Positions 8,478 through 34,062 of a stretch of 64,000 nucleotides of DNA are shown in pieces. Made by a program: the position numbers and the translations under genes. The notes beneath the pieces are model-generated. The model was not told the DNA's origin and searched no databases. It was given only the letters and a program-made list of their open reading frames with translations. The DNA is taken from assembly GCA_902522465.1 (NCBI GenBank), contig CABYVV010000002.1:65764-129763 (forward strand). Direction: 5' to 3'. Every line of letters starts with the position of its first letter. The stretch's first letter is position 1. The DNA comes from an uncultured Alphaproteobacteria bacterium (lineage in GTDB: Bacteria; Pseudomonadota; Alphaproteobacteria; Methylaequorales; Methylaequoraceae).

Positions 8478-8484
8478 TATGATA

Positions 8485-8736
8485 TTAAAAAATAATAATA
8501 ATTATTATCCATCCAATAAATATTGAAACCAATACGAAAACAAATACCTTAAATATTGAATTTAAACGAGTTAAAAGTTTTTCTTTACTGAATCTTGAAA
8601 AAAAAAAAACAATTAATTTTCTTAAATTATTTATTATTAATAGGACAAATGCTCCTATAAAAAAATAAAAAATTAATTTTAAAATATTGAAGTAGAAGCC
8701 AATCTCTTTTTGCCATTCAGCAATTATGTCCAGCAT
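8485..8736 (-). CDS. Small hypothetical membrane protein
   Basis: 83-aa ORF with two hydrophobic stretches. It sits directly upstream of the WaaL-like gene and is co-directional with it. I recognise no motif. Confidence 0.4.
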   Translation of the reverse strand: MLDIIAEWQKEIGFYFNILKLIFYFFIGAFVLLIINNLRKLIVFFFSRFSKEKLLTRLNSIFKVFVFVLVSIFIGWIIIIIIF

Positions 8737-10692: not shown

Positions 10693-10860
10693 ATTTGGCT
10701 ACTTGCCTTTGAATATTATGAACGATCTATTAACCATTATCAATCAGCATTAAAATTGATTATTAAAAATCTTAATATATTTAAACATCGGAAACATCAG
10801 CAAAATATTTTTAACAGATAAAAATAATGACAAATTCGAGTTTTTCATTCACTTATTAAA

Positions 10861-10874
10861 ATTGTAATTACAAT
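10861..10874. promoter_or_regulatory. Perfect 14-bp palindrome ATTGTAATTACAAT, a candidate enhancer/UAS for the flgG sigma54 promoter
   Basis: The self-complementary 14-mer is centred about 146 bp upstream of the -24 GG at 11014. The half-site ATTGTAAT recurs at 11001-11008, immediately upstream of the promoter. Confidence 0.35.
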
Positions 10875-11012
10875 GAAATCTTAATTTTGAAAAGGAAGAT
10901 TTTTTTAATACAATATTTAGCAAAGGCTTGGATATAAAAAATATAATTAAAGAAAAAATAATTTAATATGTAAGAGTTCTATTTTTTAAGTCACAAATTT
11001 ATTGTAATTTAG

Positions 11013-11028
11013 TGGCATGAGGTTTGCA
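11013..11028 (+). promoter_or_regulatory. Sigma54 (-24/-12) promoter of the flgGHIJK(L) operon
   Basis: TGGCATgaggtTTGCA has exactly 10 nt between the GG and GC dinucleotides. It lies about 39 nt upstream of the flgG ATG, in the largest intergenic region of the window. Confidence 0.7.
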
Positions 11029-11066
11029 CATAAATTGCTAAACTTATATCTAGAAAGAGGATTACA

Positions 11067-11855
11067 ATGGCAATTAATGCGATGCATGTAGCAAAAACCG
11101 GTCTAAATGCCCAACAGGTTAGAATGCAAATTATCTCAAATAATTTAGCAAACGTGAACACTAATGGATTTAAAAGAGACAGAGCAAACTTTGAATCCCT
11201 ATTGTATCAGATCATAAGAAGCAGTGGTGCACAAACATCCGTTGATACAGAATTAACTTCGGGCTTTTCAGTCGGTACTGGTGTTAACATCGTGAATTCT
11301 AACAAGTTACATTCACAAGGAAGTATAGTTTCGACTGATAATTCTCTTGATTTAGCCATTGATGGAGGAGGGTTTTTTCAGGTGTTATTACCTGACGGTC
11401 AGGTAGTCTATACCAGAAACGGTGCTTTCTCTAGAAATAATGAAGGTATTTTAACAACAAATAGTGGTTTTATTATTCAGCCTGAAATTGCTATCCCTGC
11501 TGAGGCAACAAAAATAAATGTTTCTGCAGATGGAATAGTATCAGTTCAAATACCTGAACAGGTTGAGGCTCAGGAAGTTGGTCAGCTTCAATTAGCTGAT
11601 TTTCAAAATAGAACTGGGTTACAACCAATAGGAGAGAATTTCTATGTTGAAACAACATCAAGTGGTCCACCCGTTATTGAGAACCCATTTGCGGCAGGTT
11701 TTGGTAAAATCATTCAAGGCGCATTGGAAAGTTCTAATGTAAATGTTGTACAAGAATTAGTTGATATGATTGAAACTCAAAGAGCATATGAAGTAAATTC
11801 AAAAGCAATCACATCTGTTGATGAGATGTTGAGATTTGTAAGTAACAACCTGTAG
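11067..11855 (+). CDS. flgG: Flagellar basal-body distal rod protein FlgG
   Basis: 262 aa. The N-terminus 'AKTGLNAQQVRMQIISNNLANVNTNGFK' and the C-terminus 'SNVNVVQELVDMIETQRAYEVNSKAI' are rod-family signatures. It is followed by flgH and flgI. Confidence 0.95.
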   Translation: MAINAMHVAKTGLNAQQVRMQIISNNLANVNTNGFKRDRANFESLLYQIIRSSGAQTSVDTELTSGFSVGTGVNIVNSNKLHSQGSIVSTDNSLDLAIDGGGFFQVLLPDGQVVYTRNGAFSRNNEGILTTNSGFIIQPEIAIPAEATKINVSADGIVSVQIPEQVEAQEVGQLQLADFQNRTGLQPIGENFYVETTSSGPPVIENPFAAGFGKIIQGALESSNVNVVQELVDMIETQRAYEVNSKAITSVDEMLRFVSNNL

Positions 11856-11857
11856 GA

Positions 11858-12556
11858 ATGAAGATGAGATATTTTTTATTTATTACATTATTTTTTCTTC
11901 AGAGTTGTGCTTCTCACATGCAAGATAGAATTGGTGAGGAATTCCAGAGTATACAACCAGATTACTCTAACTTTGAAAATATAAATAACGCAACTGAAGG
12001 TGCGGTTTACGATGGTGACGGTGGTCTTTTTGCATCCGACAGGAGAGCAAACAGAGTTGGAGATATAATTACGGTAACTTTAGAAGAAACTGTTACAGCC
12101 GCTAACTCAGGATCTGAAACACTAGCTAAATCTGATGCATACACTTTTGATCTTCCAGAGGCATTATTTGGTCCTTCATCATTAATTGGAAAATTATTAT
12201 TTCCTGGAGGGGTTAAAGAAGGAAATCTTCAAGGTGGTACAACTCAAAACTTTACAGGTTCTGGAACTGCAGCTCAAGCTAATAGTATAACGGGTACAAT
12301 ATCAGTAACAATTGTAAGAGTTTATCCAAATGGAAATCTTGAAGTAAAAGGACAAAGAAGGCTTAAATTTAATAGTGGTACAGAATATATCAGACTTGCG
12401 GGCGTTATCAGACCAGATGATATTTCATCAACCAATACGGTTTCATCAAAGAAGGTTGCTGATGCTCAAATTTCTTATACTGGTACTGGTGATATGAATG
12501 ATAGTGTTACAAAGGGATGGTTAAGTAGATATTTTGCTTACGTCTCACCTTTTTAG
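11858..12556 (+). CDS. flgH: Flagellar L-ring lipoprotein FlgH
   Basis: 232 aa. It has a lipoprotein signal with the lipobox 'FLQSC'. '[15 protein letters not shown]', '[30 protein letters not shown]' and 'GWLSRYF' match FlgH. Confidence 0.95.
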
Positions 12557-12563
12557 GATAATT

Positions 12564-13682
12564 ATGAAAAAATTTTTAATGATATTTTGCATTACTTTTC
12601 TAACAAATCAATCAGTCTTTGCTGACAGGATAAAAGATATGGCTTCTTTTGCTGGAGTAAGATCAAATCAACTTGTTGGTTATGGCCTAGTGATTGGTTT
12701 GGCAAAAACTGGTGATGGAAGTGTGAACTTAACTAAACAAAGTATTGCAGCTATGATATCTCAATTTGGTGTGATTGCTAACACAGCAGACATTGATGCT
12801 ACGAACTCCGCAAATGTGATGGTAACGGCAAATCTTCCTCCATTTGCAAAACCAGGTCAAACAATTGACGTAACTGTTTCAACCATTGGAAAAGCAAAGT
12901 CTTTAAAAGGAGGTACTCTTTTGATGACAGCTCTGAAAGGGGCTGATGGAGAAGTTTACGCAATTGCTCAAGGCAATTTAGTTGTTGGAGGATTAGGCGT
13001 TGAGGGTGCTGATGGATCAACTACAATACAAGGAACCCCCACTGTGGGGAGAATTCCTGGTGGAGCAACTGTTGAGAAATTGGTAGAAAATACATTTTTG
13101 GAAAGAGATAATGTTGTGCTAAATTTACATCAAGCTGACTTTTCTCAAGCTAATAGAATTGCAAATACTATTAATGAAACATTTGGACCTGAAGTTGCAA
13201 TTCCAATGGACTCAACCTCAATAAAAGTTAGAACACCTAAAAACCCATCTCAGAAAGTTTCATTTATTGGTTTGCTTGAAAATATAAATTTTGAACCAGT
13301 TACTCCTAAAGCCAAGGTTGTTGTAAATTCAAGAACAGGAACTGTTGTGATAGGTGGCGATGTAAGAATTTCACCGGCAGCGGTTGCTCATGGAAGTTTG
13401 TCAGTAAAAATTCAAGAAGACACTAAGTTGTTATCTGAAGGTACAGGAACGGTGGTTGGAAGTTCTGCTACAGTCTCTGGAACAGCAGCAACAACAGCTG
13501 CAGATACTCAAATAGAAGTTGATGAGGCCCCAGCAAGAGCTTTTGTTTTTGATCCTGGAATAGAGTTGCAAACATTAGTAGATGCTTTAAACGAAACTGG
13601 AACAACAGCAACAGATATGGTCGCAATTCTTGAGGCACTCAGAGAAGCAGGTGCATTAAGAGCTGAACTAATAATAATTTAA
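12564..13682 (+). CDS. flgI: Flagellar P-ring protein FlgI
   Basis: I chose the start at MKKFLMIF (12564) rather than the ORF-track 12534, which would overlap flgH. Signal peptide ends '...SVFA'. The mature '[32 protein letters not shown]' and the C-terminus '[18 protein letters not shown]' are classic FlgI. Confidence 0.95.
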
Positions 13683-13697
13683 CTTATTGGATAAATT

Positions 13698-14003
13698 ATG
13701 GACAACAATCCAATCGCCAAAATCAGACCAATCAATAATTTTGAGCTTTCAACCTCTAAACTTGATAATTTAAATGAAAAATCCGAACTTTCACAGGTTG
13801 CCCAAGAATTTGAATCGTTATTTGTTTATCAAATGTTGAAAAGTGCAAGAAAAGCTAAATTAGCTGAAAGTTTGTTTTCAAATCAAGGTAGCGAAACTTA
13901 TGAGTCTTTATTAGACCAAGAATACTCAAAAACAATTGCCAAAAATCATAGTTTTGGAATTGCTGATGCATTAGTCAGGCAATTTGGAGGAAAAAGAAAA
14001 TAA
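13698..14003 (+). CDS. flgJ: Single-domain FlgJ (rod-binding/rod-capping domain only, no muramidase domain)
   Basis: 101 aa. 'QVAQEFESLFVYQMLKSARKA' and 'YESLLDQEYSKTIAK..GIADALVRQF' match the FlgJ N-terminal rod-binding domain. The ORF ends before any glucosaminidase domain. It sits between flgI and flgK. Confidence 0.85.
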   Translation: MDNNPIAKIRPINNFELSTSKLDNLNEKSELSQVAQEFESLFVYQMLKSARKAKLAESLFSNQGSETYESLLDQEYSKTIAKNHSFGIADALVRQFGGKRK

Positions 14004-17000
14004 ATGCCAAGTTTATTTGATATAGGAAAAAGTGGTCTTCAAGCCTACAGACAATCATTGGCTGTAACAGGTCAGAATATAGCAAACGTCAATACAGACG
14101 GTTATAAAAAAAGAGATGTCGCATTGGAGGAAGTCTCCGGAGCAGGAGGTGGAGTCACAGAGATTTCTGATCAAACTGGTTTGGGAGTAAGAGTTGAACA
14201 AATAAGAAGAGCATTTGATGAGTTTTTAATTGACAAGGCTAGACAAGCCTCTTCAAATTTTAAAAGTGCAGAGTCTTTTTCAGATGAATTAAGAGATTTA
14301 GAAAACTTGTTACTTCCCACAGATAATAATCTTAGTTCATCAATTGGTAATTTTTTTAATTCATTGCAGGATATAGCTGCTTATCCTGACGATCAAGCTG
14401 CAAGAATAGTTGCAATTGAAAAGGGAAAAGATTTGGCAGCTCAATTCAATATGTATTCTGATAGAATTGAAAACCTTAAAAGTCAAATTCTTGATAAAAC
14501 AAAAAATGCTGTCACATCTGTAAATTTAATTTCGACACAAATTTCAAATATTAATGCTAAAATTTTGGCATCAGGGGTTGCAACAGGTGGATCTAACGCT
14601 CTATTAGATCAGCGAGATCTTCTCCTTGATCAGATGGCAGAATTAACACAAATTACAGTTAGGTATGGCAGTAAAGGGCAAGCTGAAGTAAGATTAGGTA
14701 ATACTGGTTCTGGGCCTATAATAATTTCTGATGCCGATAATCCTACAAAAGGAAATGAAACTACAACTAACATAAATGTTTTGGAACAGGCCGGCAGATT
14801 ACAACCAGTTGTTGGTATAGGACAGGTTGCAACAAATCAAATAAAAGCTGGATTAATTAATGGTATGATCAATTCATACGCTCAAGCGGAGGATACAATG
14901 AAAGACATCGATTCTCTAGCTTCACTCTTATCACAAAAATTTAATGAAGTTAATCAGGCTGGTTTAGATCTCGATGGAAAAAATGGAAAACAAATGTTTA
15001 CTGTTTCAAGTCTCGAGGCTGTTGAGAACCCAACAAATAGATCTAGTGTTGGAGTTGCAGTTTTTGTTACTAATCCTTTGGAGATTAAAAATGCTGAATA
15101 TAAAGTTATCTATCATGAAAATGAAGATTTGTGGAAACTCACGTCAGATTTAGATTCAAATGTCACTTCAGGAAAACAAACAATTGATGGTCAGGGTTTT
15201 AAAATTTCTTTTTTCGGTGAGCCATTAGATGGTGATGAATTTTCAATTGTACCGAGTAGTGCCTCTAAAGGGATGGCTTTTTTACTTAATAGGCCCCAAG
15301 ATTTTGCAGCTGGCTCCAAAACTCTTATAAGTTCAAGTTCCTCTAACACAGGAAGCGCCTCACTTGAAGAGATCACACCATTAAAATTTGAGGACAAGAC
15401 CAATATTAAAAATATACAAAGTGTGTTTTCAAATGGTTTAAGTCCTGTCACATCTTCAAAATTTTCAACTGATGGTGGTGCAGCAATTATTCAAGCGGGA
15501 ACATCATTCGTCAATTTAAGTTCATATAAAGCTCAACCTGAAATACAATTTGGACTTTCATCATCTGATTTAACTTCAATAACATCTATAAATGTTACAA
15601 TGGCTGACTCAAGTTCTGTTAACGTTGACCTGACTGGTATTAAATCACTTGAGGAATTAGCTGATGTTTTAAATAGGAGTAGAGACGTTCAAGGAAATGC
15701 TCACAATTTTAGATCTATGGGTCTCTTTGCATCTGGTGGTGGATCAACTCTTACAATTGCAAGTAATGATAAGCAATTTTCTTCAGGAGCAATATCCGCG
15801 GCCTCAACAATTAATGCAAATGTTGTCAATCCGACTGTCACGGCAGCAAGTAAATTACAAATATTTACTAGAGAAGGAAGGCATATTGCTGGTGAGGTTT
15901 TATCGGATTCTGAAATTGCTGAGTTTATGACAGAAGAAAATGGATTCAATAGATTTGCAGAATACAGAGCAGATTATCTCAATGGTACCGGCACAGAAAA
16001 ATATAGGGGTATTGAGGTTTCTCGATCAACTACCGATGGGAATTTTGTTATAAGTTATGGAGCTAATGGTGCTGCAGCAAGTGCACAAAGACATGCTACT
16101 ACTGTTCCTGCTAGCCATGTATCTGCTGCATATACTTTAACAGTAAATTCAACATCAACGGCAAAGTCAAAAAATATCACAGTACCAATTGAATCCTCTG
16201 CTGGTTTTGTAGCAGGACTTATTAATAAAGAAGCCAAAACACTTGGTGTTGAGGCTTTAGCTTCCACAAAAGTAAAAATTTCAGCACCATCTTCTAACGG
16301 GACAGTTTCATTTAATATTTTAAGTAAACCAGGTGTAGGGAATGATGCAGACATAACAGCTTCAATTTTATCAACTGATTTAACAAATCTAGCAAATTCA
16401 ATAAACAATTTTTCGGGAAGAACAGGAGTAATAGCAAATTTATCTTCCGATAAAAAACATATTGTAATGGAAAATGCTGATGGAGATGACATACAAATCT
16501 CTTCGTTTTCCTCTCCTAACACTGTAGAAATGGAAGTACTAAAAAATGACTTTTCATCATTTAGTTCTCCAGTAACCGTAATATTAGATAATACAAATTT
16601 TAAAGCAGCAAGATTTAGTGGAGAATTAGAAATCTCTTCAGCATCTGCGATTAGCACTTCCAATGATGGTGGTTCAACCACTGTTACTGGAACTCAAAAC
16701 GCATTAAAAGATGGTTTTCTGAACATTACTTCTTCAAGTACTGGCGAGGTGAAAACTATTAAGCCAGTTGTTCTTGACGGTGATTTTTCAAATGGACATC
16801 CTGACGGATTAAGTGCATCTAGTTCAGTGTTGTCTTATGGTTTGAAGATTCCAGCTGATGGTAATGGGGCTGAATTTAGTGCAACTGTTGATGTTTCAGC
16901 TTTGGAAGTTTTAGAACCATCTCAAGTTGCAAAAAAAATTGCTGAAGGATTAAGAGCAAACAGCCCATCTGCTGAATTGATTGGTACAGCTGTTGAATCT

Positions 17001-19094: not shown

Positions 19095-19102
19095 TTAATA
19101 TT

Positions 19103-19118
19103 AGGCATGAAAATTGCT
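19103..19118 (+). promoter_or_regulatory. Sigma54-like motif immediately upstream of flgL (uncertain function)
   Basis: AGGCATgaaaaTTGCT has the correct 10-nt GG-GC spacing. However, the -12 GC is only about 13 nt from the flgL ATG and no SD is visible. It is therefore either a leaderless-type transcript or a coincidence. Confidence 0.35.
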
Positions 19119-19129
19119 AATTTAAACTT

Positions 19130-20959: not shown

Positions 20960-20985
20960 TTAAAAACTAAATAATTACAAAAAAA

Positions 20986-21012
20986 CTTAACAAATCTGAG
21001 TATGGTCGTTTC
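20986..21012 (+). promoter_or_regulatory. Sigma28(FliA)-like promoter candidate upstream of flagellin 1
   Basis: CTTAA-N14-GTCGTTTC lies 53 nt upstream of the ATG. It shares the GTCGTT -10 core with the sites at 26114 and 27334. The -35 is the weakest of the three. Confidence 0.35.
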
Positions 21013-21064
21013 TATTGTAGCTAATGATTTTTAAAGGTTAATGGAAAATAAAGGAGAATAAATA

Positions 21065-21820: not shown

Positions 21821-21838
21821 TATTAAGGAGAAAATAAT

Positions 21839-22597
21839 ATGACATCTGTAAGTAACGCTGCCGTTGGTGCTTTTCTAGCTGGAAACGCTGCGGCAAAAGC
21901 AAGACACGGCATGAACGAAGCAATTGCTCGATTGTCGACAGGTATAAGATCTATGTATGGCGGTGACGCGGCTGGTGCGTCTGTGGCTCATACTCTGAGA
22001 GCTGATGGACGAAGTGCAGCGATGAGTGCTCGTAACGTTGAGGATGGTATTTCATTCTTACAAGCGGGTGAGTCTGCACTACTGGAAATAGCTGCGCTTA
22101 ATACAAGATTAAGAGAACTTGCAGTTCAAAAACTTAACGCTGCATTTTTAGATGCCAACCAAGAAGCTGCAATCACTGCTGAAGAAAATGCAATTCTTGC
22201 AGCTGGTAATTTAATCGATGCTGCAACACTAAATGATACCGCTCTTTTATCAGCTGCGATAAATTTTACCAGAGATATGGATGGTGCAGTCACAGCATTT
22301 GGTTCAAACGCTGATTTAACCCTAGCATCTGGTATAACTGCAGTAGATAGAGAAATGGGTAAGATATCTAAAGCCCTAGGTTCTCAAGCTGCTGGTATTG
22401 CTGCTCTTAAAGGTCACCAAGGTACATTGTATGGATTAGCTGCAAACGCAGAAGCTGCTGCTGCACGTGTTCAGGATACTGATTTTGCAAGATCATCTGC
22501 AGATCTAGCAAAATTTTCTATCTTGAACCAATCAGCAATGGCTATGGTAGCACAGGCTAACCAAGCTAACGCTGCTGTTTTGGCGGTGCTAAATTAG
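21839..22597 (+). CDS. Short divergent flagellin (class A, paralog 2), Ala-rich and visibly more GC-rich
   Basis: 252 aa and collinear with paralog 1. Shared blocks include 'ARLSTGIR', 'ALNTRLRELAVQKLN', 'AITAEE', 'ALKGHQ', 'QDTDFA' and 'ILNQSAMAMVAQAN'. It lies 18 nt downstream of paralog 1 and has its own SD 'aaggag'. Confidence 0.85.
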   Translation: MTSVSNAAVGAFLAGNAAAKARHGMNEAIARLSTGIRSMYGGDAAGASVAHTLRADGRSAAMSARNVEDGISFLQAGESALLEIAALNTRLRELAVQKLNAAFLDANQEAAITAEENAILAAGNLIDAATLNDTALLSAAINFTRDMDGAVTAFGSNADLTLASGITAVDREMGKISKALGSQAAGIAALKGHQGTLYGLAANAEAAAARVQDTDFARSSADLAKFSILNQSAMAMVAQANQANAAVLAVLN

Positions 22598-22626
22598 ATA
22601 GATAAAATAATACTATCATAAAAGTA

Positions 22627-22663
22627 AAAAAGGAGACTAAATTGCTTAGTCTCCTTTTTTTTT
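22627..22663 (+). terminator. Rho-independent terminator after the tandem short flagellins
   Basis: The stem GGAGACTAA (22632-22640), loop attgc and stem TTAGTCTCC (22646-22654) are followed by a 9-nt T-run. An A-run precedes the hairpin. Confidence 0.8.
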
Positions 22664-22801
22664 CCCTATTTTTTTTTTTTACTTAATAAAAAAAAATCTT
22701 ATCAGCTTAAATGTCAAAAATATAACACTAAATATCGTATTTTTTTCTTTAAAATTCACAATATGAAGTATGTTTTGGATTTTTTTTCCAAATACATAAT
22801 T

Positions 22802-22817
22802 TGGCATTCTAATTGCA
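22802..22817 (+). promoter_or_regulatory. Sigma54 (-24/-12) promoter of the long flagellin / fliD / fliS unit
   Basis: TGGCATtctaaTTGCA has 10-nt GG-GC spacing. It lies 36 nt upstream of the ATG at 22853, with SD 'aaggag' in between. Apart from the 5-nt spacer it is the same as the flgG promoter motif (TGGCAT-N5-TTGCAcA). Confidence 0.7.
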
Positions 22818-22852
22818 CACAACCTATGTGAAAAATTTAAGGAGAAATATAA

Positions 22853-24412
22853 ATGGTTAGCGTAAGCACAGTAAATACTCACGCATCATTGAAGCACATT
22901 ATTAAGACTGAAAGAGAGATGCTCCAAGCAATGGAGAGAATCTCTTCAGGAAAAAGAATAAATAATGCAGGTGATGATGCAGCCGGTGCAGCAATAAGTG
23001 ATAGAATGTTGGCAACGGTGAGAGCTTTAGATATGTCAATTAGAAATGCATCTGATGTATTGTCTATGGCTCAGGTTGCAGAAAGTGCAATCAATGAACA
23101 CTCACAAGCTTTACAAAGAATTAGAGAATTATCAATACAAGCAGCAACTGATATTTTGAATGCTGAACAAAGAATTTATCTACAAACTGAAGCTAACCAA
23201 TTAATTCAAGAAATGGATAGAGTTGCAAGAGATACCACTTTTAATGAAATCGCTGTGCTAGATGGTACTTTTGCTGATAGACGTTTTCAAATCGGATCTC
23301 ATGAAAGAGAAAAAGCAGTTATCTCCGTTGCTAATATGAGAGTTGATAAAATTGGTGCATACCAAAGTTCAACAAGTATGGATGAAGCGGGAACAGCTGG
23401 AAACCTAGCATCAGAGGGTGTAGTAGGTGCCAATGCTTCTGTTACCAGTAGAGTAGTTGATGGAGATGATCTAACAATTACTGGATTAGTAGGACAAACA
23501 ACTATTGACGTAAAAGCTGGGCACTCAGCAAAAGATATTGTTGAGTTAGTTAATGCTAAATTTGATAATACAGGAGTAAGTGCAACTGCAACTACTACTG
23601 TTAAAATGCAGGTAAATAGTTCTGATGCTGCAACAGATCATGTAGTATCTTTTAATTTATACGGTAAAAATACAACTGCTCAGGCAATCTCTGCAACAAT
23701 TAGTGTTGCGGCAACAGTCGGAGCTTCAGATATGACAAACCTTCGTGATGCCATTAACGCCTACACAGCCACTACAGGAGTGAGAGCAACATTAAGCGCT
23801 GATAAATCAAACATTATATTAGTACAAGATGAAGGCGAAGATTTAATAATTGAAACAATTGATTTTGCAACTGTTACAAATGCTAATACTAAATTTACAT
23901 TTACAGCAATGTCTCAAGATCAAACAGATTCTGCAGCGACACAAATTACTACGGCTGTAGATACAAATCATAATAGTGGTAACACTGATTCAGTGAGATT
24001 TACTGGACAAATTACATTTCACTCTTCGCAAACATTTACAATTGCTGGTAATTCCGGTGGTGGTCTTTATGAAGCTGCACCGGGAACAGCTTCTTTAAAC
24101 CAAGTTGCTTCAATTGACATTAGAACTGTAGCAGGTGCTGTTGATGCTTTAAAAGTAATTGATAGAGCACTTGATAGGGTTCATATGGAACGCGCAAAGT
24201 TTGGTGCAATCATGAGTAGGATGAATGTTGTTATTGACAATTTAACAAATGTGTCAACAAACCAAAAGACTTCAAGATCAAGAATTACAGATGCAAACTT
24301 TGCAGCTGAATCAGCTAGACTTGCTAAATCTCAAATTCTACAACAATCTGGAATGAATATGATTTCTCAAGCATCAAGAACTATGCAAAATGTTTTAATT
24401 TTATTTAATTAA
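22853..24412 (+). CDS. fliC: Canonical long flagellin (class B)
   Basis: 519 aa. It has 'MERISSGKRINNAGDDAAGAAISDRM' and 'LQRIRELSIQAA', a Thr/Ser/Ala-rich central domain with IN-type motifs ('MTNLRDAINAYTATTGVRATLSADKSNIILV'), and the C-terminus 'RITDANFAAESARLAKSQILQQSGMNMISQA'. Confidence 0.92.
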   Translation: MVSVSTVNTHASLKHIIKTEREMLQAMERISSGKRINNAGDDAAGAAISDRMLATVRALDMSIRNASDVLSMAQVAESAINEHSQALQRIRELSIQAATDILNAEQRIYLQTEANQLIQEMDRVARDTTFNEIAVLDGTFADRRFQIGSHEREKAVISVANMRVDKIGAYQSSTSMDEAGTAGNLASEGVVGANASVTSRVVDGDDLTITGLVGQTTIDVKAGHSAKDIVELVNAKFDNTGVSATATTTVKMQVNSSDAATDHVVSFNLYGKNTTAQAISATISVAATVGASDMTNLRDAINAYTATTGVRATLSADKSNIILVQDEGEDLIIETIDFATVTNANTKFTFTAMSQDQTDSAATQITTAVDTNHNSGNTDSVRFTGQITFHSSQTFTIAGNSGGGLYEAAPGTASLNQVASIDIRTVAGAVDALKVIDRALDRVHMERAKFGAIMSRMNVVIDNLTNVSTNQKTSRSRITDANFAAESARLAKSQILQQSGMNMISQASRTMQNVLILFN

Positions 24413-24442
24413 ACTAGTGCTTTTTTAGGACGTTAAAATAGC

Positions 24443-26110
24443 ATGACCTCCGTAAACAACAGACCTGAAATTCTTACTAAGTTAGGTGTCGGATCAGGTC
24501 TTGATACCACCGCACTTATTGAAGCCTTAGTAAATGCTGAAACTGAAGGTGTTAAAGAAACACTAGACAATAAAGAAATTGAGTATAAGGCTCAGATTTC
24601 AGCCTTTTCTCAAATCAAAAATAATTTGAAGACTTTTAATGATAATTTAGAGATTATACAAAGTAATAACGCCCTAGGATATGCAGGATCAACTTCTGAC
24701 AAAACTATTGCAACTTTTACTGTAAATGGAAATCAAGCCTCCCAAGCAGTAAACTCTTCTTTAACTGTAACCTCTCTGGCAACTGCACATACGCTCACAG
24801 GACCGTCTTTGCCTTCGGCAAGTTCAACTGTTGGAGCAAGACAAATTAGTATTTCCTTTGGTACATGGTCTGCAGATCCAACTCAAGGAGGAGGGCAGAG
24901 TCATACCTCCAATGGAATGTCTACAATTACTGTAAATCCATCCTCTACTACTACGTTGATGCAATTAAGGGATATGATAAACAGTGCCGCTTCAGATTCA
25001 AATAGCGATGGTGAGCAAGATGTAACTGCGACAATTTTGTATGATGGTTCAAATTATATGTTATCACTTAAAAGTCAATTCGGAGCAGCTAATGAAATGA
25101 AAATTACCGACAATCATGCATCTTCACCTGTATATGCTTATGATACTTCTGATGGAGCGCAATTAACACAAAGAGTGGCAGGAACAAATGCCGCTTTTAC
25201 AGTTGATGGGATAAGTATGACAAGAACATCAAATAGTATTGATGATTTATTTGCAGGAATGACTTTAGATTTATTGGCAACATCGGATTCGGCTGTAACT
25301 ATTAAAAGTGAAGTTGATCTGGCTTCTGCGAGAAGTGCAATTACTGATTTTGTAACAACTTATAATGATGTAATGAAATCGTTACAAAGCTATAGAGAAT
25401 CTGATCCAACTGATGACGAGAGAAATGGCTTGCTTGCAGGTGATTCATTATTGAGAAGTATTATGAACGAAATGAGAAATAGTAGTGGAACAGCAATTAA
25501 TGGATATGAGGGTGGTCCTTACTATCTATCCAATATGGGTGTAAAGACCATGAGAGACGGAACTTTAAGTTTTGCAGATCCTGCTATGCTAGAAAGACAA
25601 TTTAAAAATAATGCAGAATCTTTGAGAAGTTTTTTTAAAGACCAGATTGTAAGTGATAATACTGATATAATTCCAAAAAGGTACAGCGTAGCAGACACTA
25701 AACCAGGTTCTTATGCAGTATCAGTTAGTTCAGGAACTGCTACAATTGGTGGCGTTTCAACAACTCAATCAGGTTCATTATATACTGTTGCATCAGGAGA
25801 TCCTAATGGAATAGCACTAGAGATCAATTCAAGTAATACGACAGGCACTGTTCATTATGGAAGAAGTTTTATAACTTTATTGCAAGACAAACTTGATACT
25901 TTCTTAAAATTTAATGGTTTAATTTCCAGTAAAGTGGACGGTGCTAACAAACGTTTATCTGCGTTAGCTGAAAAACAATCAAATCTTGAAGATAGAATTG
26001 CATCATTGTATAGTAGGTATGAAACACAATACTCTGCGATGGAAAGCACTATTGCAGGACTAAATGAAACTTCTAGTTTGCTTGAAAACGCTTTTAAAAG
26101 AAACGATTAA
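24443..26110 (+). CDS. fliD: Flagellar filament cap protein FliD
   Basis: 555 aa. 'LGVGSGLDTTALIEALVNAE', 'FTVDGISMTRTSNSIDDLFAGMTLDL' and the C-terminal coiled coil 'RIASLYSRYETQYSAMESTIAGLN' are FliD hallmarks. Confidence 0.92.
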   Translation: MTSVNNRPEILTKLGVGSGLDTTALIEALVNAETEGVKETLDNKEIEYKAQISAFSQIKNNLKTFNDNLEIIQSNNALGYAGSTSDKTIATFTVNGNQASQAVNSSLTVTSLATAHTLTGPSLPSASSTVGARQISISFGTWSADPTQGGGQSHTSNGMSTITVNPSSTTTLMQLRDMINSAASDSNSDGEQDVTATILYDGSNYMLSLKSQFGAANEMKITDNHASSPVYAYDTSDGAQLTQRVAGTNAAFTVDGISMTRTSNSIDDLFAGMTLDLLATSDSAVTIKSEVDLASARSAITDFVTTYNDVMKSLQSYRESDPTDDERNGLLAGDSLLRSIMNEMRNSSGTAINGYEGGPYYLSNMGVKTMRDGTLSFADPAMLERQFKNNAESLRSFFKDQIVSDNTDIIPKRYSVADTKPGSYAVSVSSGTATIGGVSTTQSGSLYTVASGDPNGIALEINSSNTTGTVHYGRSFITLLQDKLDTFLKFNGLISSKVDGANKRLSALAEKQSNLEDRIASLYSRYETQYSAMESTIAGLNETSSLLENAFKRND

Positions 26111-26113
26111 AAA

Positions 26114-26141
26114 CTAAATTATTCTAAAATTTTGTCGTTAT
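26114..26141 (+). promoter_or_regulatory. Sigma28(FliA)-like promoter candidate upstream of fliS paralog 1
   Basis: CTAAA-N15-GTCGTTAT lies 29 nt upstream of the ATG, with SD 'aggag' in between. Compare the enterobacterial TAAA-N15-GCCGATAA. Confidence 0.5.
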
Positions 26142-26170
26142 GCTCTATATAACTTTTTATAGGAGCAGTA

Positions 26171-26566
26171 ATGTCAAATGGAGAAAATACAGATAGCATC
26201 TTTTTAATTGATAACAAAGAAGCTACTGTTAATGCAATTAATAACATCAAGAATATAATAAAAATCACACTTGGTCAGATTGAACAGTTAAAATCAGATA
26301 AAGCTCATAGTGCCGAATTTACTAAATTGTGTGAAAATACAATTAAAAATTTATTCATGTTAATAGATACAATTGACAAGGAGAAAAACTCGTCATTATC
26401 GAAAGATCTTGACTATCTATACAAACATTGTCTTTTTTCTGTAATAAGAGTAAGAGATCATAAAGATTTTGATTTTCTCGACGGTTGTATCCAAATTTTA
26501 GGTGAAATAACTGAAGGTTGGGATAGAGTAGGTTCAGCTGTTGAGAAAGCCCCTGCTTTTGGTTAA
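26171..26566 (+). CDS. fliS: FliS-like flagellin export chaperone, paralog 1
   Basis: 131 aa. 'IKNLFMLIDTIDKEKNSSLSKDLDYLYKHCLFSVIRVRDHKDFDFLDGCIQILGEITEGWDRV' follows the FliS helix 3-4 pattern (L..LD.e.g.el..nL..LY.Y....L..a......l.e....l..l.eaW). It is positioned after fliD. Confidence 0.75.
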   Translation: MSNGENTDSIFLIDNKEATVNAINNIKNIIKITLGQIEQLKSDKAHSAEFTKLCENTIKNLFMLIDTIDKEKNSSLSKDLDYLYKHCLFSVIRVRDHKDFDFLDGCIQILGEITEGWDRVGSAVEKAPAFG

Positions 26567-26572
26567 CTTTTT

Positions 26573-27337
26573 ATGTCCCTAGCATTATACCCAGCTATTA
26601 AACTTGGAGATAACCAAGAAAAGATTAAAAGATCAATATCTAGGCTGACCACTGGATTAAATATTTTAGCGGGTGCAACATCTGGTGAATTTGCTGAAGG
26701 AATTTCTTTACATGCAGAGGGAAAATCAAATCAAAAAGTGATTTCAACTACAAATGTTGGCCTTGATTTGTTAAAGACGGCTGAATCAGCTCTTATAGAG
26801 TTGGCTGCACTTGCTACTCGTTTAAGAGAAATTGGTATAGCAGACACAGTCTCTTCAAATAGCGCATCAGATACCGCAGCGCTGAATGCAGAGGCTATCG
26901 CTGTAAGCGACAGTATTGATGATATTGTATCTACAGCAAAGTTTCATAATTTAGCGCTTTTATCAACTGGTGCGAGAACACTGGCTACAGTCAAAGACGG
27001 AGGTGGAAATACAACTACAATTAAAACTACAGCAGGTATAACAGCCACTAACATAACAGATGCAACCAACTCTAATACTACAGCAGACACTGCAATTGGT
27101 GAAATTGAAACATCATTAGGTCATGTTGCCGGTCATATAAATTCTTTGGGTGCATATCAGAACACAGCTAATGCATTAGCTTCGATTGAATTAGAGTCTG
27201 CAGCAAAATTAATGGATACTAATTTTGCGCTCGAAACAGCAAAATTAATGAAAAAAAACCTAATCCAAAAATATGCCACCTCAATGGTAGCAAAAGCCAA
27301 TGAAATTGAAGAAAATAAAAAATTATTAATTCTCTAA
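26573..27337 (+). CDS. Short, highly divergent flagellin-like protein (class C)
   Basis: 254 aa. 'ISRLTTGLNILAGATSGEFAEGISL', 'LLKTAESALIELAALATRLREIG', 'LGAYQNTANAL' and 'MDTNFALETAKLMKKNLIQKYATSMVAKAN' align with flagellin N and C helices. It starts 6 nt after fliS paralog 1. Confidence 0.7.
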   Translation: MSLALYPAIKLGDNQEKIKRSISRLTTGLNILAGATSGEFAEGISLHAEGKSNQKVISTTNVGLDLLKTAESALIELAALATRLREIGIADTVSSNSASDTAALNAEAIAVSDSIDDIVSTAKFHNLALLSTGARTLATVKDGGGNTTTIKTTAGITATNITDATNSNTTADTAIGEIETSLGHVAGHINSLGAYQNTANALASIELESAAKLMDTNFALETAKLMKKNLIQKYATSMVAKANEIEENKKLLIL

Positions 27338-27360
27338 ACTTTTATTTTTTAGGTCGTTTA
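27334..27360 (+). promoter_or_regulatory. Sigma28(FliA)-like promoter candidate upstream of fliS paralog 2
   Basis: CTAAA-N14-GTCGTTTA lies 16 nt upstream of the ATG at 27377, with SD 'aaggag' following. Confidence 0.45.
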
Positions 27361-27376
27361 CATTAATAAAGGAGTT

Positions 27377-27778
27377 ATGGAAATGAAAAATAAACAAACA
27401 GAACACAAAGAAAGTAAACAAAATCCAAACAATGTGCCAAGCGCACAAGAACAATATAATATAATTCTTAAACTTTATAAAGGTTTGCATGATAACCTTG
27501 AAGAATTGTATAAGAAATCTAAGGATAAAAATTCTTCAACAAAAACTAGTCAATTAGCCTATAAAGTTGACAGAATAGCATCAGGACTTCATCTCACCCT
27601 TAATTTTGAAGATGAAAAGACTGTAAAGATTAGTGAGAATTTCAGAGAATTATATAGACATGTAAGATTTGCTATGAAAATGATTTATGAAAAACAAGAG
27701 TATAAATTTTTGAATTCTGCGCGAGATGTTGCTAGGACTCTTTATCAATCCTGGGCAAAAATAAAACCAACTATTTAA
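27377..27778 (+). CDS. FliS-like flagellin export chaperone, paralog 2
   Basis: 133 aa. 'QEQYNIILKLYKGLHDNLEEL', 'IASGLHLTLNFEDEKTVKISENFRELYRHVRFAMKMIYEKQEYKFLNSARDVARTLYQSWAKI' shows the FliS four-helix pattern. It directly follows the class C flagellin. Confidence 0.7.
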   Translation: MEMKNKQTEHKESKQNPNNVPSAQEQYNIILKLYKGLHDNLEELYKKSKDKNSSTKTSQLAYKVDRIASGLHLTLNFEDEKTVKISENFRELYRHVRFAMKMIYEKQEYKFLNSARDVARTLYQSWAKIKPTI

Positions 27779-27817
27779 CATTTGTTATTTTTTCTTAATG
27801 CCATAGAATAAAATTTA

Positions 27818-29524
27818 ATGGTAGTAAGAATTGTTTCAGTGATTCTGACTGGACTAGTGGTAGGCTCATCAGTAGCAGTGCTAGTCCAAGTCTTTCTTTT
27901 TCTGGTAAACTATCTGTCAAATTTATTAAGGACAGACTACACGGAACTGCTTAATCAACATCACTTTAGTGTAAATGAATTAGTAATAAAAATAATCTTT
28001 TTCTTTTTAATTGTTCCATTTTTAGTTGGTCTTGTTGTTGGTATAATAAGAAATTTTAATAAGGGAAAAAGGTGGCACGGTCCGCCAGACGTCATTCTCT
28101 CAGTTCATAAAGATGATGAAGAGTTAAATGTTAAATCAGGTTTTTTGACATCTATTGCTTCTATTTTATCTATTTCATGTGGAAGCTCTGTGGGTCAATA
28201 TGGTCCCTTGGTGCACTTTGGAGGTACTATTGGTGCTGAGATAAAAAAATTGTTTTCCTATGCACCTGACTACAAAATTTTAGTTAGTTCAGGAGTTGCT
28301 GCAGCAATTTCTGCAGGTTTTGGTGCACCTCTAGCGGGATTAATTTATGCTCGAGAAGTAGTCCTCAGGCATCAATCTCTCGCAAGTTTTTCTCCAATTT
28401 TATTATCATCTATAATATCGTATTTTTTTACTGTTGAAGTCTTTAATTATGAACCCACTTTTGATATTCCATTAGTAACGGGAAACAGCCCAATAAACAT
28501 AATTTTCATAATAATTGGTGGGATCTTTGCAGGACTTATGGCGAGTCTTTATTCGTATCTTTTGACAAATAAAAATTTTAATTTTATGAATAACCTTGGT
28601 TCCAGACCCTATCTTACGCCTGCTTATGCCGGCCTGATTTGTGGAATCATAGCAATTAAGTTCCCAGAAGTAACAGGTATTGGTTCTGAAACAATTAACG
28701 ATTTATTAAATAATAGAGTTGAATTAACTTCAGCTATGATTTTCTTATTCTTAAAGTTATTTTTGACAACTGTTTGTATTCGAATGGGCTTAGTGGGTGG
28801 TATATTTGCTCCAGCTTTATTTTTAGGAGCTAGTTTGGGAGTAATTACAGCAGGTCTTGCATCAATTATTTCAACAGATATCAATCCTTTTTTACTGATT
28901 TTATCGTCTATGTCCGCGCTTGGAAGTTGTATTATTGGCGGACCAATAGCTAATGTTTTGATTATTTTCGAGCTAACATCAAATTACCAAGCTGCTTTGT
29001 CAGCAGGTATCTGTATAGTCGTTGCAACAATTGTTTCATCGCAACTGATAGGACAATCTACATTTGATCAACTTTTAAACAATAGAAATATAGATATAAC
29101 TGTAGGAAGAGACATATTATTTCTTCAAAGAAAAAAGATAAAAGATATTGTAGATAAAAACTTTCTCAGGCTAGGTGGTGAACTTTCAGTAAAAGAAGCG
29201 ATTGAAAAATTTAAAGAACTTGAATGTAGTGAGGGATATTATGTAGGACTTAATGATAAACTCTTGGGAAAGATTTCACTTCCCAAATTATTGTCTTGCA
29301 AATTAGATTCAAAAATAAGAGATGTGAAAAAAACAAAGTTCCTTAAAATAAATGATGAAGAAGATCTGTCAAATACAATTGAAAAATGTAAAGATTTTGT
29401 TGGAGAATCAATCCCTGTGGTAGACAATAAAGGAAAGATAGTAGGAATATTTAGTGAAAATGATCTTTTTGTTAGTTATTTAGAAGCTGAAGAATTTAGG
29501 GCTGACATTGAAACTAAATCGTGA
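27818..29524 (+). CDS. ClC-family anion channel/transporter homolog with a C-terminal CBS pair; non-canonical selectivity-filter residues
   Basis: 568 aa. 'GSSVGQYGPLVHFGGTIG' aligns to the GxEGP motif. 'GGIFAPALFLGA' is the GxFxP motif. 'ELTSNYQ' carries the conserved central Tyr. The C-terminal ~140 aa is CBS-like. The GSGIP position reads 'WHGPPDV'. Confidence 0.85.
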   Translation: MVVRIVSVILTGLVVGSSVAVLVQVFLFLVNYLSNLLRTDYTELLNQHHFSVNELVIKIIFFFLIVPFLVGLVVGIIRNFNKGKRWHGPPDVILSVHKDDEELNVKSGFLTSIASILSISCGSSVGQYGPLVHFGGTIGAEIKKLFSYAPDYKILVSSGVAAAISAGFGAPLAGLIYAREVVLRHQSLASFSPILLSSIISYFFTVEVFNYEPTFDIPLVTGNSPINIIFIIIGGIFAGLMASLYSYLLTNKNFNFMNNLGSRPYLTPAYAGLICGIIAIKFPEVTGIGSETINDLLNNRVELTSAMIFLFLKLFLTTVCIRMGLVGGIFAPALFLGASLGVITAGLASIISTDINPFLLILSSMSALGSCIIGGPIANVLIIFELTSNYQAALSAGICIVVATIVSSQLIGQSTFDQLLNNRNIDITVGRDILFLQRKKIKDIVDKNFLRLGGELSVKEAIEKFKELECSEGYYVGLNDKLLGKISLPKLLSCKLDSKIRDVKKTKFLKINDEEDLSNTIEKCKDFVGESIPVVDNKGKIVGIFSENDLFVSYLEAEEFRADIETKS

Positions 29525-29861
29525 AATCAATACTATTTCTCTGTTGTTTTGATGTGGTTTTTAGTGAAGATATCATCAAATATTTTGTAGCACTTTCACT
29601 ATGAAAATAAATAGGGCTAAAAAGTTCTCTAGCCTTAAAGAATGCCTCAGTGCTAATCCCAATGCTAGGTGCTAACTTTGGACTATATATTTTTCTTTTA
29701 AATAACTCTGAATTTTCCCTATCATAGGAACTCAGATTATGATTATCATCGACTTCTCTAATAATATTCCTATTTACGATCGGATGTGGCACACCTTTTG
29801 CTACATTATCTACAAACTGGTTGGAAACAGGATCCACGTAGTTATAATTAGGATTAATCAT
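29514..29861 (-). CDS. Hypothetical protein (orphan) in the flagellar locus
   Basis: 115-aa ORF that fills the whole ClC-to-fliS3 gap and overlaps the ClC stop by 11 nt. I recognise no motif. It carries a sigma54 promoter motif on its antisense strand, so its coding status is uncertain. Confidence 0.4.
   Translation of the reverse strand: MINPNYNYVDPVSNQFVDNVAKGVPHPIVNRNIIREVDDNHNLSSYDRENSELFKRKIYSPKLAPSIGISTEAFFKARELFSPIYFHSESATKYLMISSLKTTSKQQRNSIDFTI
29787..29802 (+). promoter_or_regulatory. Sigma54 (-24/-12) promoter of the fliS paralog 3 operon
   Basis: TGGCACaccttTTGCT is a full consensus match with 10-nt GG-GC spacing. It lies 76 nt upstream of the ATG at 29878. Confidence 0.65.
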
Positions 29862-29877
29862 TTTGAAATAATAACCT

Positions 29878-30264
29878 ATGAAATTAAGTCAAGCAAAGAA
29901 ATATTATAAAAAAAGTCAAAATGATGGATTAGATCATGTTAATCCATATGAAATTTTTAAGAAAATTAACTATGAATTACTTCGAGCTTTAAAAATAGTT
30001 TCGGAAAAAATTGAAGAAAAAAAAATTGATGAAGTTAGACAAAAAAACTTCACAAAAGCACTAACAATAATTTATACGCTTCAAACAAGCCTTGATTTTG
30101 ATAAGGAATTAAACCTTTCATCTGATTTATTCAGATTCTACGAATTTTGTAGAAAAAAACTAATAGAGGGTATAACAGGTATGAAAAGTAAAGAAATTAT
30201 TAAATCTGCCGTTAATTTAGATAAAATGTTTAATTTTAATTATATGACAAAGATGGAGTCTTAA
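29878..30264 (+). CDS. FliS-like flagellin export chaperone, paralog 3
   Basis: 128 aa. 'AKKYYKKSQNDGLDHVNPYEIFKKINYELLRAL' and 'FTKALTIIYTLQTSLDFDKELNLSSDLFRFYEFCRKKLIEG' closely follow the FliS consensus (a..Y....v...sP.eL...ly......l..a ... kA..Ii.eL..sLd.e.g.el...L..lY.y....L). Confidence 0.75.
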   Translation: MKLSQAKKYYKKSQNDGLDHVNPYEIFKKINYELLRALKIVSEKIEEKKIDEVRQKNFTKALTIIYTLQTSLDFDKELNLSSDLFRFYEFCRKKLIEGITGMKSKEIIKSAVNLDKMFNFNYMTKMES

Positions 30265-30597
30265 ATGTTATCCGATAAATTTATCCAAGATGATTTTACT
30301 GACAACGAAAACTTATCAAAGCAAATAACTCGGCTTGAAGAATTAAGTATTTCAATGACTAAATTGATTGAAAATGGAAACCCACATAAAATAAGTCATT
30401 TGGAGAAAATAAGACAAAAAATCCTCAAGGATATCATTAAAAATAAAAAACCAATAACGAAAAACCTTCAACCAAAAGTTTCAAATATAATAAATTTGAA
30501 TAATAATATGATTGAAGAAGTTAAAAAAGCTAAGACAAAAACCCTTGGAGAAATAAAAAAGAAAATAAGCTTTTACAAATCATATAGTAATTCCTAA
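30265..30597 (+). CDS. Hypothetical helical/coiled-coil protein, possibly a FliT-like chaperone
   Basis: 110-aa Lys/Glu-rich ORF, translationally coupled to fliS paralog 3 (taaATG). The FliT-like assignment rests on position only. No diagnostic motif is present. Confidence 0.4.
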   Translation: MLSDKFIQDDFTDNENLSKQITRLEELSISMTKLIENGNPHKISHLEKIRQKILKDIIKNKKPITKNLQPKVSNIINLNNNMIEEVKKAKTKTLGEIKKKISFYKSYSNS

Positions 30598-30649
30598 AAA
30601 TTTATATTCTTTTCCATTCAAATACATAAGACCTTATGTTTTGAAAATT

Positions 30650-30683
30650 GAGAGCAAAAAAAAGTTGCTTTCTTTTAATTTTT
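30650..30683 (+). terminator. Rho-independent terminator closing the flagellar locus
   Basis: The stem GAGAGCAA (30650-30657), loop aaaaaag and stem TTGCTTTC (30665-30672, one G-U pair) are followed by TTTTAATTTTT. Confidence 0.6.
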
Positions 30684-34061: not shown

Positions 34062-34062
34062 T

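Follow-up and report, generated by a model that had tools for sequence, protein, structure and literature searches.

A resident late-flagellar locus in an uncultured, genome-streamlined marine alphaproteobacterium of the order TMED127

Introduction

Does a small, AT-rich genome from the surface ocean, of a style usually tied to non-motility, encode a working flagellum? The question is raised by a 64,000-nucleotide stretch of an uncultured alphaproteobacterium (GenBank assembly GCA_902522465.1, contig CABYVV010000002.1, positions 65,764 to 129,763 of the forward strand), hereafter the window, which carries a long series of late-flagellar genes. An initial annotation, made from the letters alone, had described this series as an intact locus in a very compact, AT-rich marine alphaproteobacterium, and our analyses agree with it on these points. 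Here we report that the locus, with good probability, encodes the late part of a working flagellum that is resident in the chromosome. It belongs to 'Methylaequor' (GTDB o__TMED127, genus GCA-2691245, species sp902522465), an obligately methylotrophic, uncultured bacterium of surface seawater with a genome of about 1.5 Mb.

The order TMED127, for which the name 'Methylaequorales' has been proposed, consists of free-living bacteria with genomes of about 1.5 Mb, proteorhodopsin and an obligate, lanthanide-dependent methylotrophy via XoxF and the serine cycle (Glass et al. 2025, PMC12542740). According to the same paper, TMED127 accounts for up to several percent of surface-ocean metagenomic reads and is put forward as the chief organism to oxidise methanol by the lanthanide-dependent route in oligotrophic seawater, the source of the methanol being unknown. 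A recent study of the Great Barrier Reef placed TMED127 among the 'streamlined oligotroph' indicators and flagellar motility on the copiotroph side. The papers whose text was searched do not discuss flagella or motility of TMED127; the automatic annotation at NCBI already names proteins of the window's type as flagellar. The machine itself is of an ordinary flagellar kind, and what is new is the host and the ecological implication.

Gene content of the late-flagellar locus

All open reading frames (ORFs) between 10 and 31.8 kb were compared with Pfam, which confirmed an intact, uninterrupted plus-strand series of flgG-H-I-J-K-L, four flagellins, fliD and three fliS genes at 11067-30597. The features of this region are given below (aa, amino acids), with gene families from Pfam and hairpins from a terminator scan.

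11067-11855 (+): flgG, distal rod
11858-12556 (+): flgH, L ring
12564-13682 (+): flgI, P ring, likely start at 12564
13698-14003 (+): flgJ, 101 aa, rod-binding domain alone, muramidase absent
14004-19094 (+): flgK, giant hook-filament junction protein 1, 1696 aa
19130-20410 (+): flgL
20411-20908 (-): gene for a 165-aa protein without family match, between flgL and the flagellins
21065-21820 and 21839-22597 (+): two short flagellins, 251 and 252 aa
22626-22660: 16-bp perfect hairpin between A and T runs, bidirectional terminator after the short flagellins
22853-24412 (+): 519-aa flagellin with IN motifs
24443-26110 (+): fliD
26171-26566 (+): fliS-1
26573-27337 (+): third short flagellin-like gene
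27377-27778 (+): fliS-2
27818-29524 (+): ClC-type chloride channel with CBS domain
29514-29861 (-): ORF overlapping the fliS-3 promoter element, probably not a gene
29878-30264 (+): fliS-3
30265-30597 (+): 110-aa ORF without family assignment, at the expected place of a FliT-type chaperone
30650-30672 (+): terminator-like hairpin and T-run at the locus end

The terminator that had been placed at 30650 is recovered by the terminator scan. The 374-bp gap before flgG (10693-11066), first described as the largest intergenic region of the window, is the largest one free of ORFs; the gap at 33821-34315 is longer and holds two small ORFs within 33834-34272 (-), one of 75 aa with a hydrophobic segment and one of 69 aa.

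The two short flagellins are 55% identical to each other; the four flagellin-type genes, which share 28-55% identity, are old paralogs. Among solved structures, the flagellins are matched best by Vibrio FlaA-D and the Pseudomonas B-type flagellin. The three FliS proteins are mutually only 19-35% identical, and this divergence, together with the age of the flagellin paralogs, suggests dedicated chaperone-flagellin pairs. Since FlgJ has no muramidase domain, some peptidoglycan-opening enzyme would be needed for the rod. A soluble lytic transglycosylase of 645 aa is encoded at 38698-40635 (-), and its C-terminal domain scores 149 bits against the NCBIfam model 'flagellar assembly lytic transglycosylase', which has a cut-off of 234.

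Two genes of the region had gone unmentioned in the initial annotation. The chloride-channel gene lies between fliS-2 and fliS-3 on the strand shared with the flagellar genes. The minus-strand 165-aa gene is found in every TMED127 locus compared, with 42-99% identity and a ratio of nonsynonymous to synonymous substitution (dN/dS) of about 0.05; its protein has no Pfam match, even at relaxed thresholds, and its single-sequence AlphaFold model has a pLDDT of 35. Relaxed-threshold Pfam searches with the small ORFs without assignment gave nothing usable.

Conservation and selection

Relatives of FlgI with 84-97% identity occur in 32 species-representative genomes, which span at least three named GTDB genera (GCA-2691245, TMED13 and GCA-2710765). 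The exact FlgG protein is found in 86 blocks of public assemblies; among these are many single-cell genomes of the GORG set and a long-read contig of 1.54 Mb obtained from seawater of the Great Barrier Reef. The flagellar locus is present on contigs of 1.54 and 1.62 Mb. Gene order from flgG to the flagellins is kept in every locus covering the block. In the window's genus the block is flanked upstream by Wzy_C, yjbQ, ahpC-like and HAD genes. In other genera flgG is adjoined, in opposite orientation, by the SBF transporter, tupBC, ABC importer, ibpA, slt, dapA and smpB genes that follow fliS-3 in the window, and AG-404-M02 has both flank sets upstream of the block. The flank differences are local rearrangement within one neighbourhood and not insertion at varying sites. 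The 374-bp gap before flgG is a variable slot, of which the window matches only both edges; in relatives it holds a His_Phos_1-type ORF or a sulfotransferase-domain gene of about 590 aa. The latter, at 585-600 aa, carries its own sigma-54-type motif in four loci (L007 7905-9662, L012 ~6086, L013 ~6038 and L042 ~6060).

GC content in the window is 0.25-0.30 and rises to 0.32-0.37 from about 12 to 30 kb. The GC content at third codon positions (GC3) is 0.192 for flagellar versus 0.198 for housekeeping genes and codon preferences are identical; the first and second codon positions account for the higher GC of the locus, since the axial proteins of the flagellum contain much Ala, Gly, Ser and Thr. 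The window contains no tRNA and no Rfam match, and the ORFs compared with Pfam or NCBIfam show no match to integrases or transposases, which agrees with the earlier statement that integrase, tRNA and insertion sequences are absent from the edges.

Selection was assessed as dN/dS between the window and four other species of the genus. With dS saturated (>1) these values are only rough, though their ranking is still clear. They are 0.001-0.008 for FlgG, 0.017-0.041 for FlgI, 0.03-0.07 for FlgH, 0.04-0.09 for FlgK, 0.025-0.05 for FlgL and 0.14-0.22 for the flagellins, with 0.001-0.17 across the flgG-flgJ stretch and 0.11-0.28 for the neighbours yjbQ, ahpC-like, HAD and Wzy_C. FlgG is 99-100% identical as protein across the genus, against only 44-84% for the neighbouring genes. 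Broken ORFs occur mainly in nanopore-based contigs and to some extent in a metagenome-assembled genome (MAG) from short reads (L020), where non-flagellar neighbours are broken too. The locus is thus resident, as first proposed on the basis of its edges, and under strong purifying selection.

Host lineage

The single-cell genome AG-898-B20 (GCA_902533395.1, locus L008) has 100% protein identity to the window in every gene compared over 15.5 kb, and GTDB places it in o__TMED127, g__GCA-2691245, s__sp902522465 (PMC12542740 supplement). Eight further carriers of the locus are listed in the same order: AG-911-L17, AG-892-F10, AG-891-J16, CM1_5m.P40, MED652, SAT45, MED723 and AG-343-F10. TMED13, which carries locus L026, is a genus of TMED127 (Glass et al. 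2025, PMC12542740). Other members of the genus GCA-2691245 have FlgG with 99-100% and FlgI with 93-96% identity.

The initial annotation had found the window Pelagibacterales-like. By GTDB classification this placement does not stand; the impression matches the genome style and old NCBI labels on carriers, such as 'Pelagibacteraceae bacterium TMED13' and 'Rickettsiales bacterium MED652'. It had also asked whether the contig belongs to a well-known flagellated genus, which GCA-2691245 is not, and its housekeeping assignments were confirmed by NCBIfam. Further genes of the window bear on the host's metabolism.

50066-53582 (-): glycerate 2-kinase, hydroxypyruvate/glyoxylate-reductase-like and serine/aspartate-glyoxylate-aminotransferase-like genes (NCBIfam)
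55976-60491: full biotin operon, bioF, gene without assignment, bioC, bioD, bioA
62397-63680 (+): glyA (NCBIfam)

The putative serine-cycle genes fit the methylotroph identity of the host; the xoxF methylotrophy island does not lie within the window.

Three other hosts were considered and rejected. The identifiers of the carrier single-cell genomes are absent from the HIMB59 genome table, and the AEGEAN-169 and HIMB59 papers make no mention of flagella; the identifiers are likewise absent from the genome table of the low-GC SAR116, whose estimated 2.4 Mb is too large; and Mitibacteraceae, basal flagellated Rickettsiales, are described as larger and of higher GC. One copy of the locus (L011, PBAP01000021.1), with FlgG 100% and FlgI 96% identical, sits in the MAG 'Flavobacteriales bacterium SP47' and is probably mis-binned.

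A second flagellar locus

The 10 kb on either side of the window contain no further flagellar genes. The invariant FlhA motif MPGKQMxID (the FHIPEP motif) was written as a DNA pattern in AT-biased codons of the host type and searched for in a metagenome collection, from which 120 loci were retrieved. These included two related groups of low-GC alphaproteobacterial flhA loci. One representative of the second group, P0396, lies on contig CACKEP010000012.1 of the single-cell genome GCA_902599235.1 (locus L180). On another contig of that genome, CACKEP010000015.1, a GlyA identical to that of the window is found next to the same bioC-bioD-bioA-AGCS-rpiB genes.

The gene order of L180 begins with flgE, flgD, flgC, flgB, two genes without assignment, a DUF2802 gene, another gene without assignment, flgM and flgA, and continues with genes for a LysM/FimV-like protein, a FlgT_N-like protein and an LPP20/FlgP-like lipoprotein. 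A divergent part follows with flhA, flhF, flhG (MinD/ParA type), fliA and a further gene without assignment, with flgF on the opposite strand. The same order is found in a related lineage (P0415), whose FlhA is 82% identical to the query and whose FlgE has 1276 aa. Between the two loci all axial parts are accounted for (FlgG, FlgK, FlgL, flagellins and FliD in the window; FlgB, C, D, E and F in L180), as are the ring proteins FlgH and FlgI in the window and the chaperone FlgA in L180; of the export apparatus FlhA, and of the regulators fliA and flgM, were found in L180. The second locus has no sequence overlap with the glycosylation island that adjoins the late-flagellar locus, and the 10 kb upstream of the window are still island.

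The abrupt start at flgG, with no flgA-F upstream, holds as first described for the immediate surroundings of the locus. It does not hold for genomes of this kind, in which flgA-F, flgM, flhA, flhF, flhG and fliA occupy the second locus. Among the further core genes that the initial annotation had named, flgB-F, flhA and fliA are thus in L180, and fliF, fliG, fliM, fliN, flhB, motA/B and rpoN were not seen in the loci examined.

The first flhA group (L165-L171; for example ERZ28548062 boult_4__contig_1846_pilon, 1.48 Mb) is a low-GC marine alphaproteobacterial lineage of about 1.3-1.5 Mb. Its architecture is alike, with flgP/flgT-like genes, flgA and flgM, then divergent flhA-flhF-flhG-fliA, and flgF. 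No tie to TMED127 could be established: the TMED127 table does not list its genomes, and its Mb-scale contigs never coincide with FlgI-bearing ones. One FlhA cluster of the group holds MarineAlpha9_Bin4 and TMED93, and the sister bin MarineAlpha9_Bin3 is o__TMED109. The group is probably another order than TMED127, and a second streamlined order may therefore also be flagellated.

Promoter motifs

The initial annotation had credited the locus with dedicated promoters. A sigma-70 scan gave no excess (81 sites versus 80.8 expected), and the claim does not hold for this class; it does for motifs of the sigma-54 and sigma-28 types. The sigma-54-type motif GGCAY-N5-TTGC (-24/-12 core) occurs five times in the window versus 0.59 expected, three times in L180 versus 0.18 expected (before flgB, flhA and flgF) and three times versus 0.04 expected in L184, a 20.7-kb locus comprising the window start and 10 kb upstream; none of 100 shuffles reached the observed count in any of the three. 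The L184 matches are before two more sugar-biosynthesis operons and again at the GT2 site. All matches precede a flagellar or island operon and have the correct orientation.

5462-5475 (-): sigma-54-type -24/-12 element GGCATAACTTTTGC, 38 bp before the GT2 operon; element also in L007, L012 and L021
11014-11027 (+): sigma-54-type element, 40 bp before flgG; place kept in all TMED127 loci, 5-nt spacer varies
19104-19117 (+): sigma-54-type element before flgL
22803-22816 (+): sigma-54-type element, 37 bp before the 519-aa flagellin
29788-29801 (+): sigma-54-type element before fliS-3
20987-21011 (+): sigma-28-like variant before the first short flagellin, conserved across genera
24410, 26115 and 27335 (+): sigma-28-like motifs before fliD, fliS-1 and fliS-2; the third short flagellin-like gene lies between fliS-1 and fliS-2

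The flgG and flgL sites recur at the same positions in TMED127 loci, with GGCAY and TTGC kept and the spacer variable, and the long-flagellin site recurs likewise in the loci that extend that far. For sigma-28 a loose search with mismatches was uninformative, and a narrowed motif came from reading the spacers, in which the consensus CTAAA-N14-15-GTCGTT(T/A) was seen. The pattern TAAA-N13-17-GWCGTT has three exact matches in the 64 kb, all of them just before fliD, fliS-1 and fliS-2; another variant lies before flgM in L181. AGGAG-type Shine-Dalgarno sequences are visible before the genes, as had been reported.

From these motifs we infer that sigma-54 would drive the operons of flgB, flhA, flgF, flgG, flgL, the long flagellin and fliS-3, and that FliA (sigma-28) would drive the short flagellins, fliD, fliS-1, fliS-2 and flgM. 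Since the two motif types are accompanied by fliA and flgM in the genome, the predicted arrangement agrees with the flagellar hierarchy of two sigma factors in Vibrio, Pseudomonas and Campylobacter.

The adjoining glycosylation island

Upstream of the late-flagellar locus lies an island of at least 20 kb (window 1-8736 plus L184 10650-20663, continuing upstream of the window start). Its members in the window were assigned with Pfam.

210-872 (-): TylF-type methyltransferase
869-1732 (-): NeuB
1725-2900 (-): CMP-sugar synthetase/HAD
2962-4281 (-): DegT-type aminotransferase
4285-5424 (-): GT2
5548-7185 (-): 545-aa TPR protein with a faint GT9-like C-terminal match (E = 0.058)
7281-8477 (-): Wzy_C/O-antigen-ligase-like membrane protein
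within 5548-8736 (-): conserved 83-aa ORF

The block at 5548-8736 (-) is the conserved edge of the island, present in all loci of the genus at 41-70% identity. Pfam domains of the island in the window and L184 together comprise NeuB, CMP-sugar synthetase, PseB/LegB-like dehydratase, DegT aminotransferase, GT2 and Wzy_C, along with a radical-SAM enzyme, a TPP enzyme, methyltransferases and TPR proteins. A nonulosonic-acid set of the Pse/Leg type is thereby present (NeuB-type synthase, CMP-sugar synthetase, PseB/LegB-type dehydratase and aminotransferase), and the operon at 210-5424 is likely a nonulosonic-acid (flagellin glycan) pathway.

Island content varies between strains of one genus, and three island operons carry the sigma-54-type motif of the flagellar operons. 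Because of this shared motif and the adjacency, the nonulosonic-acid/glycosyltransferase island is probably part of the flagellar regulon and probably glycosylates the flagellins. As the 210-5424 operon is among those with the motif, the functional unit probably extends upstream of 10693. A role in surface polysaccharide instead of flagellin is possible, since the island holds a Wzy_C/O-antigen-ligase-like gene.

Giant FlgK and FlgE

The 1696-aa FlgK consists of normal N- and C-terminal FlgK domains, which match solved FlgK structures, around an insert of about 1200 aa. The insert has no match among solved structures or in Pfam, relaxed thresholds included, and a self-BLAST of FlgK reported no internal repeats. 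In all TMED127 representatives whose flgK is complete, the protein has 1689-1794 aa. It is accompanied in TMED127 by a hook protein FlgE of about 1300 aa (~1276 to >1301 aa; L180 1-2933 (-), cut by the locus end; L181 1-3250 (-)), some three times the enterobacterial size.

An exhaustive profile-free search returned 112 clusters (50% identity) that match the FlgK insert at E < 1e-30; most are FlgK-sized (1300-2100 aa), and the match begins near residue 415. Named carriers include the PS1 clade/Rhodobiaceae (1432 aa) and Puniceispirillales/SAR116 (1421 and 2125 aa), whose inserts are homologous to that of Methylaequor at 27-38% identity with onset near the same residue, while the TMED127 FlgKs form a group apart with 61-65% identity. 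Because PS1/Rhodobiaceae and Puniceispirillales also carry the insert, giant junction proteins are a shared, little-studied trait of marine planktonic Alphaproteobacteria. No functional study of the insert was found in the literature searched.

Proposed flagellum and alternative explanations

In the flagellum that we propose, the window module would supply the distal rod, L and P rings, hook-filament junction, filament, cap and chaperones. The second locus would supply the proximal rod (flgB, flgC, flgF), the hook (flgD, flgE), flgA, flgM and FlgT/FlgP-like outer-ring proteins, as well as the export-gate protein FlhA, the polar-placement pair FlhF/FlhG and the sigma-28 factor FliA. Sigma-54 would serve the structural and island operons, and FliA the short flagellins, fliD, fliS-1, fliS-2 and flgM. 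The gene set points to polar placement and to the type of organisation seen in Vibrio, Pseudomonas and Campylobacter; the filament would consist of several flagellins, with a separate FliS for each class.

Several observations weigh against a working flagellum in this host. In the loci examined, fliE/F/G/H/I/J/K/L/M/N/P/Q/R, flhB, motA/B, rpoN and che were never seen, and no flagellar genes are among the first ~475 of the 1535 annotated coding sequences of AG-892-F10 (Table S5 of PMC12542740). That paper, the sole genomic one on the order, lists highly transcribed genes without mention of flagella or motility. The tie between the two loci consists of one single-cell assembly and lineage consistency, not of one contiguous genome; promoter assignments rest solely on motifs; the chloride-channel gene breaks up the flagellar block; and the dN/dS values are rough, as stated above. 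The unseen motor and export genes (fliF/G/M/N/P/Q/R, flhB, motAB) and the silence of the published genome description on motility would suit a remnant or repurposed system, in which rod, ring, hook and filament were kept, the motor or export core was lost and no working flagellum is made. Yet some 36 kb of useless genes should decay in a streamlined 1.5-Mb genome, and they are instead intact in Illumina-based assemblies, more constrained than their neighbours and preceded by conserved sigma-54 and sigma-28 motifs; FlhA, FlhF, FlhG, FliA, FlgM and FlgA would moreover have no role without assembly. We regard the remnant explanation as unlikely.

The GC step at the locus borders (0.32-0.37 versus 0.25-0.30) and the adjoining hypervariable island could also mark recent horizontal transfer of a genomic island into one strain, the mobile-island alternative of the initial annotation. 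Against this stand the GC3 and codon usage, which are those of housekeeping genes with the excess confined to codon positions 1 and 2, the presence of the block in the same neighbourhood across the species representatives and genera given above, and the lack of tRNA and of integrase or transposase matches among the scanned ORFs; we reject this alternative as very improbable. It is just as hard to believe that the host is a flagellated bacterium within, or sister to, SAR11/Pelagibacterales or AEGEAN-169/HIMB59: its genome style speaks for this, as do the names 'Pelagibacteraceae bacterium TMED13' and 'Rickettsiales bacterium' at NCBI, but GTDB (PMC12542740 supplement) puts the identical single-cell genome and its relatives in o__TMED127, and the evidence from the HIMB59 and SAR116 tables and the AEGEAN-169/HIMB59 papers runs the same way. 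That mis-binning does occur is shown by the copy in 'Flavobacteriales bacterium SP47'. An assembly or binning artefact joining foreign flagellar genes to a streamlined genome is nevertheless next to inconceivable, as the same housekeeping junctions are found in more than 20 independent single-cell genomes, in MAGs of several studies and in long-read contigs of 0.5-1.6 Mb. The functional, resident flagellum of Methylaequor remains the explanation that we prefer.

Significance

We tentatively put forward a broader proposal, which we hold to be possible without calling it probable: that Methylaequor, a streamlined oligotroph that ranks among the most abundant in the tropical surface ocean, swims. 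It would devote about 4% of its 1.5-Mb genome to a sigma-54/sigma-28-controlled polar flagellum whose hook (FlgE ~1300 aa) and junction (FlgK ~1700 aa) are unusually large and whose regulon includes a strain-variable flagellin-glycan island, and would thereby reach patchy methanol sources such as phytoplankton. If true, this breaks the working rule that genome-streamlined free-living bacterioplankton are non-motile, providing a counter-example to the link between streamlining and non-motility, and recasts the hypervariable island of such genomes, taken to be of the lipopolysaccharide (LPS) type, as a locus of flagellar-surface diversity. A flagellum would also alter ecological models, in which cells would seek point sources (phycosphere, particles) as opposed to awaiting a diffuse supply, and a first culture might be sought by enriching cells for motility or chemotaxis. 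Side features of value are the giant FlgK and FlgE and the glycosylation island apparently under sigma-54 control.

Comparison with known systems

The polar systems of Vibrio and Pseudomonas and the Fla1 system of Rhodobacter sphaeroides serve as comparison systems. Methylaequor shares with them the contiguous flgG-H-I-J-K-L and the flhA-flhF-flhG-fliA cluster. Further common features are FlgT- and FlgP/LPP20-like outer-ring genes beside flgA-flgM, several flagellins and, here as motifs alone, the two-sigma pattern of sigma-54 structural operons with sigma-28 flagellins and flgM. Unlike those organisms, Methylaequor is a deep-branching alphaproteobacterium whose genome measures 1.5 Mb; its FlgJ lacks the muramidase, its FlgK (1696 aa) and FlgE (~1300 aa) reach two to three times the normal length, and its three FliS are highly divergent.

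Caulobacter crescentus resembles Methylaequor in having an alphaproteobacterial polar flagellum (here predicted from genes) with sigma-54-type flagellar promoters, several short flagellins (~250-270 aa) without outer domains, and a nonulosonic-acid pathway (NeuB, CMP-synthetase, aminotransferase) with a TPR protein beside it. Flagellin pseudaminylation in C. crescentus depends on FlmG; in the Methylaequor TPR protein, unlike FlmG, the glycosyltransferase nature of the C-terminus is only the faint match given above. To our knowledge, Caulobacter has neither FliA/sigma-28 nor FlhF/FlhG, and its gene order is different.

With OM43 and SAR11, Methylaequor has in common a small AT-rich genome, high coding density, a free-living existence in the surface ocean and proteorhodopsin (for Methylaequor, PMC12542740). 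OM43 and SAR11 are described as non-motile and without flagellar genes (general knowledge and PMC8547437), whereas Methylaequor has at least 36 kb of flagellar genes together with a glycosylation island of at least 20 kb, the two being probably co-regulated.

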